From a virus, in the IMG/VR virus record IMGVR_UViG_3300032213_001531, positions 32,001-96,000 of that record: a stretch of 64,000 nt of DNA; one strand, given 5' to 3'. How positions within the stretch are numbered: position 1 is the stretch's first letter; the number at the start of each line of letters is the position of its first letter. Position numbers and translations under genes: made by a program. This document shows, in pieces, positions 54,278 to 55,276 of this stretch. The notes under the pieces are model-generated. The model made no database searches, was not told where the DNA came from, and saw only the letters and a program-made list of their open reading frames with translations.

Positions 54278-55276
54278 TTAGCAACCGCCACCATCAAAGC
54301 ATCCTGGGCTTGAGCAAGCTCCACCGCAACAGAACACTGTACAGAAGTTTGGTGAGCAACAGCTAGGAGAACATGATCCTCCGAAGCCATTACATGCTTG
54401 TGCAAAGTAAGGTGGGAAGAATGGGAATGAAGGTGGGAAGAATGGAGGGAAGAATGGTGGGAAGAACGGGAAGAACGGGAAGTAAGGGAAATATGGTGGG
54501 AAGAACGGTGGGAAGAACGGTGGGAAGAAAGGTGGGAAGAACGGGAAGAATGGAGGGAAGAACGGTGGGAAGAATGGAGGGAAGAAAGGTGGGAAGAACG
54601 GGAAGAACGGGAAGAATGGTGGGAAAAATGGCGGGAAGAACGGGAAGAATGGTGGAAAGAATGGGGGAAAGAATGGAGACAAAGTAGTAATAGATCCAGA
54701 TGCAGGAGAAGCAGCGCTTGTACCATTAGCATTAGTTGCTGTAACTGTATAGGTTTGTGAAGTTCCAGCAGTATCTGCAATAACAATTGGAGAAGTAGCA
54801 CCTGTTCCAGAAGTACCGTCAGATCCTGTTACAGTATAACCACTGATTGTCTTTCCACCAGTTGATGGGGCTGAAAAAGCAATTGAGTTTTGATTTACGC
54901 CAGCTGTTGGAGTTGGAGCAGACATGGTTGCAGGAACTGTTGTTGCGGTAATAGAATCTGAAGCAGTTGAGGCTGCTGAAGTTCCAGCAGCATTGCTTGC
55001 TGTTACAGTAAATGTATATGCAGTAGCAGACTGAAGTCCAGCTACAGTAATTGGAGAAGATGAACCAGTTCCAGTAAATCCTCCAGGACTAGATGTTACA
55101 GTATAAGAAGTTGCTGCTGGAGATAGCGCAGGTAAAGAAAAAGATACTGTTGCAGCACCATTATTAAAGGCTCTTCCAGTTCCAACATCTGTTGCTGTTG
55201 CTCCTGTTGGTGCCAATGGCTCTAAAAAGTCATTTGATGCTTGTGACTTCTTACCTATTCTCTTACCTGATGCCAT
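54278..55276 (-). CDS. Two FN3-like domains + 91-aa PPFF repeat + 10-Cys C-terminal domain (putative virion adhesin A)
   Basis: AATVSF...SYTVTS...GL....YTFTVTASNAAG.S (twice), P/F tract, C-terminal ACNGFGGSCSPSCCSPNFCTVFCCGGACSSPGCFDGGGC; AGGAG RBS. Confidence 0.85.
   Translation of the reverse strand: MASGKRIGKKSQASNDFLEPLAPTGATATDVGTGRAFNNGAATVSFSLPALSPAATSYTVTSSPGGFTGTGSSSPITVAGLQSATAYTFTVTASNAAGTSAASTASDSITATTVPATMSAPTPTAGVNQNSIAFSAPSTGGKTISGYTVTGSDGTSGTGATSPIVIADTAGTSQTYTVTATNANGTSAASPASGSITTLSPFFPPFFPPFFPFFPPFFPPFFPFFPFFPPFFPPFFPPFFPPFFPFFPPFFPPFFPPFFPPYFPYFPFFPFFPPFFPPFFPPSFPFFPPYFAQACNGFGGSCSPSCCSPNFCTVFCCGGACSSPGCFDGGGC
54404..54676 (-). repeat. Imperfect 12/9-nt tandem repeat encoding PPFF/PFF
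   Basis: Plus strand gaagaa(t/c)gg(t/a)gg units. Confidence 0.95.

Follow-up and report, generated by a model that had tools for sequence, protein, structure and literature searches.

A variable-length Pro/Phe tract in a family of putative phage fibre-tip proteins, and the prolyl 4-hydroxylase-like oxygenases encoded beside it

The gene PF1 (54278-55276, minus strand) lies in a 64,000-nucleotide stretch of viral DNA (hereafter the window), which comprises bases 32001-96000 of the 104,993-bp virus record IMGVR_UViG_3300032213_001531 (97% complete according to CheckV). Its 332-residue product (P0001) carries a 91-residue tract of proline and phenylalanine, which we regard with near certainty as a real protein-level feature. 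On balance, we favour a reading in which the tract is a translated low-complexity tether in a modular fibre-tip protein, plausibly proline-hydroxylated by oxygenases encoded in the same genome. The role as a tether or linker is the firmer part of this reading and is likely, judged from sequence and predicted structure. Hydroxylation by the neighbouring enzymes is the weaker part, to which we give slightly less than even weight.

The tract occupies residues 201-291 (54404-54676, minus strand) in a regular-expression scan. This agrees exactly with an earlier sequence-only reading of the window, which had described a 91-residue Pro/Phe tract with few Tyr and Ser substitutions. The tract consists of 25 units (13 PPFF, 8 PFF, 2 PPYF, 1 PYF, and 1 PPSF) and contains 16 Pro-Pro pairs, 45% proline, no glycine, and no charged residue. 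A collagen-like triple helix, which is built of (Gly-X-Y)n, is excluded by the lack of glycine. In Tandem Repeats Finder, the repeat shows up with periods of 12 and 33 bp (scores 197 and 204). Wobble variation between units, also part of the earlier description, is present: the proline codons vary synonymously (CCA, CCG, and CCT) while the protein repeat is kept. Two further frames are open over the repeat (54220-54801, minus strand, and 54373-54687, plus strand); they are by-products, because the repeat is stop-free. Only the PPFF frame continues from two fibronectin type III (FN3) domains into a Cys-rich tail that is shared with a paralogue, PF2.

PF1 starts with a conserved peptide (residues 1-20, ...KKSQASNDFLEP; 55217-55276, minus strand), in which K5, S11, N15, D16, F17, and P20 are nearly invariant across a 44-sequence alignment. 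Two FN3/Ig-like domains follow (residues 21-200; 54677-55216, minus strand; Pfam fn3 E 2e-8). AlphaFold2 (AF2), run on the monomer with a 44-sequence alignment, predicts these domains to be all-beta, with predicted local distance difference test (pLDDT) scores of 97-98. The tract has pLDDT scores of 50-61 and no secondary structure according to DSSP. The protein ends in a tip of 41 residues with ten cysteines (54281-54403, minus strand; end ...PGCFDGGGC). The sequence-only reading had proposed a rigid or self-assembling stalk. A translated spacer or stalk that is conserved at the protein level and variable in length stands, whereas "rigid" and "self-assembling" are supported neither by the AF2 model nor by the low-proline repeats of relatives described below.

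In the paralogue PF2 (353 residues, P0002; 62354-63415, minus strand), seven short Pro/Phe (PF) tracts of 7-19 residues separate a PASTA-like N-terminus (E 1.3e-4 and 22.3 bits against Pfam PASTA, under the cut-off of 23.2), an Ig-like domain, a 4-Cys module, and a Cys-rich tip of the same type, which is 55% identical to the PF1 tip.

A search of 5.8 billion proteins returns more than 2738 PF1 homologues at E ≤ 1e-3, and those that bear a name are annotated "Fibronectin type III [uncultured Caudovirales phage]". The putative fibre-tip family of PF1 is common in uncultured phages. Sixteen of 17 inspected homologues share a common plan: the conserved N-terminus (...KKSQASNDFLEP), one to several FN3 domains, an in-frame Pro/aromatic tract, and a variable end. 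The exception, P0042, consists of FN3 repeats only and lacks the tract. Loss of the tract or a change of frame in homologues had been named beforehand as evidence to look for against the repeat; instead, thousands of metagenomic homologues read the tract in the same frame. A search with a DNA pattern for PPFFPPFFPPFF identifies at least 120 viral contigs; 596 Gb of cellular genomes yield only 22 such stretches. Six of these 22 matches are real. Their contigs are phage-like (GC content 36-48%), and the small proteins encoded combine a PASTA-like N-terminus with a PPYF/PPFF tail. Full-text searches of the literature found no relevant account of PPFF in phages or of tail-fibre linkers made of Pro and Phe.

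The variable length proposed by the sequence-only reading is confirmed. The tract spans 15-181 residues in homologues (median 76), and its length differs between assemblies even where the flanks are 97-100% identical. In particular, three pairs of homologues with N-terminal domains of such identity and the same tip differ only in the tract (91 versus 106, 76 versus 113, and 53 versus 79 residues).

The tip is the hypervariable position of the family and is occupied in homologues by unrelated Cys-rich mini-domains, Hint-like domains, or short tails. Among the tips of 73 complete PPFF-type homologues from viral contigs, 44 are Cys-rich mini-domains, 16 are short tails, and 9 are long domains (Hint-like or other). 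Phage receptor-binding proteins usually pair a conserved head with a hypervariable tail. We infer that PF1 is located in the virion, that its N-terminal peptide docks on the fibre or virion, and that its Cys-rich tip contacts the host.

In many homologues, a domain of about 170-190 residues stands right after the Phe-rich tract, starts with a cysteine (C[IV]xxDT...), and ends with ...HN[KS]. A Cys start and an HN[KS] end are typical of Hint or bacterial intein-like domains. Such ends occur at loci L037:8893-10188, L052:6101-7477, L086:10001-11365, and L123:10001-11206 (proteins P0008, P0041, P0069, and P0072). When scanned, they match Pfam Intein_splicing below threshold only (E 9e-5 to 3e-3), and the main support for the assignment is the Cys...HN end motifs. 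Self-cleavage of a Hint-like domain could leave the tract as the mature C-terminus, or could ligate the tract elsewhere.

Other spacers occur beside the tract as well. In paralogues from two related loci (L063:1-582 and L083:1-414), a classical (TP)n or (APTPV)n linker separates a short PF tract from the Cys tip. The PF1 homologues of L099 and L106 have the same tip as each other, preceded by a (GV)9 run. Judged from these sequences, the family combines several kinds of low-complexity spacer.

At the position of the tract, relatives of PF1 have one of three repeat flavours: PPFF, ([FY][SA]FTP)n (hereafter SFTP), or FG-type (FGVFGFSP, FGFSP, and FGAFG). The PPFF flavour is 53% Phe and 43% Pro; the SFTP flavour is 26% Phe, 20% Pro, 17% Thr, 12% Tyr, and 10% Ser; the FG flavour is 37% Phe, 26% Gly, 16% Ala, and 10% Pro. 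Aromatic residues make up 37-55% and charged residues 0% in all three, while proline drops from 43% to 10%. Since PPFF is replaced by the low-proline SFTP and FG repeats, the conserved property is aromatic density without charge, not a polyproline backbone. Moreover, the retention of aromatic residues across flavours indicates that the tract does more than neutral spacing. Selection seems to act on the aromatic side chains themselves, either because they cohere or because they adhere to the cell surface. Flavours are never mixed within one locus.

Codon usage sets the PPFF flavour apart. As the sequence-only reading had pointed out, Phe in the tract is nearly always encoded by TTC (42 TTC and 4 TTT), against 115 TTC and 621 TTT (16% TTC) in 41 long open reading frames (ORFs) of the window (Fisher p 3e-27). 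CCG accounts for 10 of the 41 Pro codons of the tract versus 14 of 698 in the window ORFs. The bias is family-wide: across 73 distinct PPFF-type homologues, the median TTC fraction of the tract is 0.92 (2601 TTC and 301 TTT), against 17% TTC in their own N-terminal domains, and the tracts have 94 TAC versus 12 TAT and 25% versus 2.5% CCG. It is also specific to this flavour, with 17% TTC in [FY]SFTP tracts and 37% in FG tracts. CCG, otherwise about 2% of Pro codons, is used at 33% of the Pro positions right before the aromatic pair and at 9% of the first Pro positions of PP.

The TTC excess returns in every one of 11 divergent PF loci whose protein architectures differ; therefore, a founder effect alone is unlikely to explain it. 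Avoidance of T runs or slippery sites is not supported as the cause, as both Phe positions of a pair are equally TTC (0.915 and 0.901) and TTTTTT is observed 15 times with 11.4 expected. No tRNA-Phe or tRNA-Pro is found among the tRNAs of the phage genome, which are for Arg, Met, Gly, and Asn only. The major capsid gene also favours TTC and TAC (10:4 each), with no CCG.

Hydroxylation, which the sequence-only reading had named only among its proposed checks, is the most interesting lead, and the evidence for it comes from the genes downstream of PF1. On the same strand and with gaps of at most 57 bp, PF1 is followed by a 114-residue ORF (53876-54220), a DUF6171 gene (53590-53856), a block of seven oxygenase and two DUF6065 genes (46940-53576), and, at the end of the block, a short-chain dehydrogenase/reductase (SDR) gene (46271-46939; Pfam adh_short E 1.5e-41). 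The 114-residue ORF has no Pfam or PHROG match and is present in only some related loci; the DUF6171 gene encodes a small Cys-rich protein (Pfam PF19668 E 8e-8). The seven oxygenases (52797-53576, 52112-52783, 49978-50658, 49091-49978, 48336-49094, 47684-48343, and 46940-47671, all on the minus strand) are similar to prolyl 4-hydroxylase (P4H) and belong to the 2-oxoglutarate (2OG)-Fe(II) oxygenases (Pfam PF13640 E 1e-7 to 2e-12). They lie 0.7-7.3 kb downstream of PF1 and are mutually divergent, and the HxD...H iron triad is invariant in all seven.

The closest solved structures to the oxygenases ox1 and ox2 are Bacillus anthracis prolyl 4-hydroxylase (3ITQ and 5HV0; E 3.5e-5 and 2e-4), followed by collagen lysyl hydroxylases (LH3). 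The weak PDB matches of ox2 include 6AX6 ("procollagen lysyl hydroxylase and glycosyltransferase"), which we take to be mimivirus L230. One oxygenase of the block has a sub-threshold match to WelO5 (E 5e-4). A Pfam scan of the 14 genes from PF1 to the SDR gene detects no tryptophan halogenase and no JmjC family. An eighth, solitary PF13640 oxygenase is encoded off the block and outside the window (G000:C1:99750-100349, plus strand), and similar singletons are present in the related complete genomes G001 and G004. Hyp-O-glycosylation (Hyp, hydroxyproline) was rejected, as GT2 glycosyltransferases were not found in the genome; other glycosyltransferase families were not searched.

The two DUF6065 genes (51399-52115 and 50677-51402, minus strand) are located inside the oxygenase block. 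The second of them has no Pfam match and is assigned to the family by a distant likeness (19%) to the first; Cys38 is invariant in the family. The best Foldseek matches of the DUF6065 AF2 model are dUTPases, at a weak level (E 4e-5, TMq 0.38), and a search of the ESM Atlas returns only DUF6065 clusters. In the 57-bp gap between the PF1 stop codon and the next ORF, there is a sigma-70-like site (54245-54273, minus strand; TTGACA, 17 nt, TATACT, extended TG), which matches the consensus at 11 of 12 positions, by consensus match only.

The tract and the oxygenase block occur together. The gene order tail fibre, PF1, oxygenase block, SDR, RNR is kept in nearly all of about 80 related loci. For loci whose sequence continues for 5 kb or more past the tract gene, we counted the oxygenase ORFs up to 9 kb downstream. 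All 61 PPFF loci have at least two oxygenase ORFs (range 2-10) and 60 have at least four, whereas the FG loci (21 of 21) and the SFTP loci (6 of 6) have 0-2 each, and the block is present in none of these 27. The oxygenases of the FG and SFTP loci are 23-43% identical to ox1-7, indicating that they are not orthologues of ox1-7. Complete PPFF-type genomes contain 6-10 PF13640 matches each. In G001, a complete genome of SFTP type (109 kb, terminal repeats present), the only such match lies far from the locus. The N-terminal-domain tree requires three changes of the PPFF label, two of them forced by well-supported branches, and the oxygenase block changes alike each time.

Two samples picked independently of the N-terminal domain, namely viral loci found by the DNA pattern and the matches in cellular genomes, bear on the same association. 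Among 43 viral PF loci of at least 8 kb, 36 have at least one oxygenase ORF and 21 have at least three. Five of the six real cellular-genome loci stand directly after a tail-fibre gene, beside 3-9 oxygenase ORFs and a DUF6065 homologue. The sixth, near a contig end, also stands after a fibre gene, with two oxygenase ORFs about 9 kb off and no DUF6065 homologue in the fetched stretch. The oxygenases of these six divergent loci are only 25-50% identical to those of the window. The tract is thus accompanied by what is expected around a P4H substrate, a co-encoded P4H-family oxygenase with an intact predicted triad and co-occurrence of the two across genomes. Because the Pro-Pro tract is found only with the P4H-like oxygenase block, proline hydroxylation is plausible. 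The idea that Ser and Thr supply hydroxyl groups in place of Hyp where oxygenases are missing fits the SFTP flavour (39% Ser/Thr/Tyr) but not the FG flavour (8%), and was rejected.

Aquatic phages have been described since 2010 as carrying 2OG oxygenases in tandem arrays, with no substrate known (PMC2938197, PMC3037559). Iyer, Abhiman, de Souza, and Aravind described in 2010 the tandem dioxygenase array gp41-gp54 of Synechococcus phage Syn9, proposed that it serves secondary-metabolite synthesis, and noted a dUTPase-fold protein with a conserved cysteine in phage dioxygenase arrays (PMC2938197). The DUF6065 hidden Markov model matches Syn9 gp43 (E 2.5e-10), and gp43 is most likely this protein. 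The block described here resembles the Syn9 array in having several non-identical classical 2OG-Fe(II) dioxygenase genes in tandem (seven here), in containing DUF6065, with its invariant Cys38 and weak dUTPase-like model, and in lying directly downstream of tail-fibre genes. It differs in that Syn9 adds two tryptophan halogenases and a JmjC-type (MINA-type) enzyme, and in that a repeat protein co-varies with the array in the phage family studied here. We regard the oxygenase block as a relative of the known Syn9-type array, and the Pro/Phe tract as its candidate substrate in this lineage.

PBCV-1 is the nearest precedent for a virus whose genome combines a P4H with Pro-rich repeats (Eriksson et al. 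1999, as cited in PMC7019647). In PBCV-1 and in mimivirus (L230, collagen-like proteins), as here, a viral peptidyl hydroxylase of the P4H or lysyl hydroxylase type is encoded in the same genome as Pro-rich repeat ORFs, which are its presumed substrates. Both are giant viruses of eukaryotes, each with one such enzyme, and their repeats are charged or of collagen type ((PAPK)n and Gly-X-Y), whereas the phages here have seven to ten paralogues and an uncharged Pro/Phe polymer.

Several points weigh against hydroxylation of the tract. Only two or three independent transitions back the co-variation of flavour and block, so few that a sign test cannot reach significance, and shared ancestry could be the source of much of the split between 61 and 27 loci. 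Gene conversion between paralogues could explain the agreement of flavours within a genome. The FG type has 8% hydroxyl residues and no oxygenase block, indicating that a hydroxyl supply is no general need of such tracts. The dUTPase-like fold of DUF6065 does not suggest protein chemistry, and the oxygenase block may be transcribed separately from its own promoter. No Pro/Phe tract is found in Syn9 gp32-gp40, gp43, gp44, and gp47, which lie beside or inside the homologous array, and its authors proposed secondary metabolism for that array (PMC2938197). For PBCV-1, the only virus whose P4H has been characterised, the review PMC7019647 cites an unpublished analysis that detected no hydroxyproline in virions.

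In the mechanism that we propose, the N-terminal peptide of PF1 would dock on the fibre encoded just upstream. The tract, non-globular, uncharged, and aromatic, would act as a tether whose length can evolve; it would present the hypervariable Cys-rich tip and probably add an unspecific stickiness of its own. Its length would shift fast by in-frame slippage or unequal recombination of 9/12/33-bp units. The 2OG oxygenases would hydroxylate the prolines of the tract after translation, which would render an otherwise insoluble polymer more soluble and stiffer. An extended version, in which the seven to ten oxygenases, a dUTPase-fold helper, and the SDR make an extensin- or mussel-glue-like hydroxylated polymer on the fibre tips, is tentative, and we would sooner doubt it than rely on it.

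The strongest competitor of a hydroxylated tether, though the less probable of the two, is an unmodified cohesive or adhesive aromatic domain, either a dense, FG-nucleoporin-like one or a strip that binds wall glycans or lipids, with the oxygenases acting on a small molecule, a nucleotide, or another protein. It accounts well for the constancy of 37-55% aromatics and 0% charge in all flavours while proline falls from 43% to 10%, for the FG-type relatives that manage without the block, for the homologous Syn9 array, which has no adjacent tract and was assigned by its authors to secondary metabolism, and for the dUTPase-like fold of DUF6065. However, it leaves unexplained why Pro-Pro tracts are restricted to loci with the block (61 of 61 versus 0 of 27) and why the adjacency survives deep divergence and rearrangement. 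Furthermore, it is peptidyl-prolyl and peptidyl-lysyl hydroxylases that the enzymes resemble most closely, rather than enzymes acting on small molecules or nucleic acids.

An ordered, rigid oligomeric stalk, for example a polyproline-II bundle with Phe-Pro stacking in a trimeric fibre, is improbable. Fibre proteins are commonly trimers, the monomer AF2 run is blind to an oligomeric fold, and 45% proline with 16 Pro-Pro pairs would suit such a stalk. These points are countered by the irregular mix of three- and four-residue units, by tract lengths that are free to change by 15-37 residues between otherwise identical proteins, by the tracts of 7-19 residues that act as inter-domain linkers in PF2, and by the Gly-rich FG repeats that substitute at the tract position in relatives.

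A multi-core precursor of the kind that gives rise to ribosomally synthesized and post-translationally modified peptides (RiPPs), with units excised and cyclised to antamanide-like peptides, was raised by the sequence-only reading and is very improbable. Antamanide and cyclolinopeptide A are single cores of 8-10 residues that are cut from short precursors by dedicated peptidases. The PPFF tetrapeptide is common to them and the tract, and this likeness, all that favours such a precursor, proves to be compositional only. Unlike antamanide/MSDIN, orbitide, and cyanobactin precursors, PF1 has neither cores of fixed length nor a leader, a follower, or recognition sequences around them, and it is not accompanied by a peptidase of type S9 or S8: its units are contiguous, without spacers, and vary freely in type and number, and the tract lies between folded FN3 domains and the tip of a 332-residue multidomain protein of virion type. 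The earlier observation that no dedicated peptidase is visible in the window extends to the 97%-complete genome, which has no Peptidase_S9 (PF00326) or Peptidase_S8 (PF00082) match, with control genomes positive.

An assembly artefact, non-coding repeat DNA, or translation in another frame is negligible as an explanation, in spite of the three open frames and of short-read assemblers that can miscount repeat units (the unit count in this assembly is less certain than the existence of the tract), given hundreds of independent assemblies with the same frame and the same flanking conserved domains, and proline codons that vary synonymously while the protein repeat is kept.

The hydroxylated tether that we favour can be compared with other low-complexity spacers and adhesins. 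PT linkers of glycoside hydrolases and Ser-Hyp4 plant extensins are Pro-rich extended spacers, and extensins depend on P4H. The tract is also a Pro-rich, non-globular inter-domain spacer of variable length, but it is about half Phe, has no Ser or Thr for O-glycosylation, and occurs in a genome without GT2. It resembles FG nucleoporins in being Phe-rich, uncharged, and without a stable fold predicted by AF2, and PF1 relatives bear true FG-type repeats. The Phe density of FG nucleoporins is roughly 10-15%, however, against 53% in PPFF-type tracts; there is no homology, and the setting is a phage virion.

The gp38 adhesins of T2/S16-like phages are encoded after the distal fibre gene, and their Gly-rich motifs fold into a polyglycine-II (PGII) sandwich. 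PF1 shares with them its small size, its place right behind the distal fibre gene, a conserved putative attachment end, low-complexity repeats, and hypervariable tip segments. In contrast to them, the PF1 tract has no glycine and no predicted fold, and there is no sequence similarity (no PHROG match).

PF1 is surrounded by virion genes. Immediately upstream lies a 794-residue tail-fibre gene (55310-57694, minus strand; Pfam Mtd_N E 3e-11; matches to many PHROG tail-fibre families, best E 5e-27), which PF1 follows in nearly all related loci, with more fibre-like genes beyond and then portal, protease, and major capsid genes. The structural module contains an ORF of 3613 residues (19777-30618, minus strand), adjoined by one of 1533 residues (14502-19103). 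Beside PF2 stands the sole long plus-strand ORF of the fibre region (61749-62297; 182 residues), which has a hydrophobic N-terminal segment and a lysozyme- or transglycosylase-like sequence by eye.

The source genome encodes a WhiB-family protein (G000:C1:16527-16700; E 5e-13), and its major capsid protein is closest to those of Streptomyces phages (44% identity), the sole link from this genome to cultured phages. Therefore, the source is probably an actinophage, an uncultured one of about 105 kb that encodes whiB. Neither 6 kb of DNA nor the PF1 protein gave any match in the phage GenBank collection, because of the low-complexity filter and the lack of cultured relatives.

The Pro/Phe tract is a concrete and cheaply testable candidate substrate for long-unexplained phage oxygenases. 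If the reading proposed here is true, the tract would provide the first case of a phage virion protein hydroxylated by enzymes after translation, and the long-sought substrate of the Syn9-type dioxygenase arrays, which are abundant in aquatic phages, would be identified. Phages would then join giant viruses and eukaryotes in having hydroxyproline-type structural polymers, and abundant uncultured actinophages would rely, for their host-range proteins, on chemistry that requires oxygen, iron, and 2-oxoglutarate. Even if unmodified, a charge-free tether of 50% Phe that changes length fast is an unusual material, as is its FG-type replacement, and both bear on how fibre tips reach and stick to cells.

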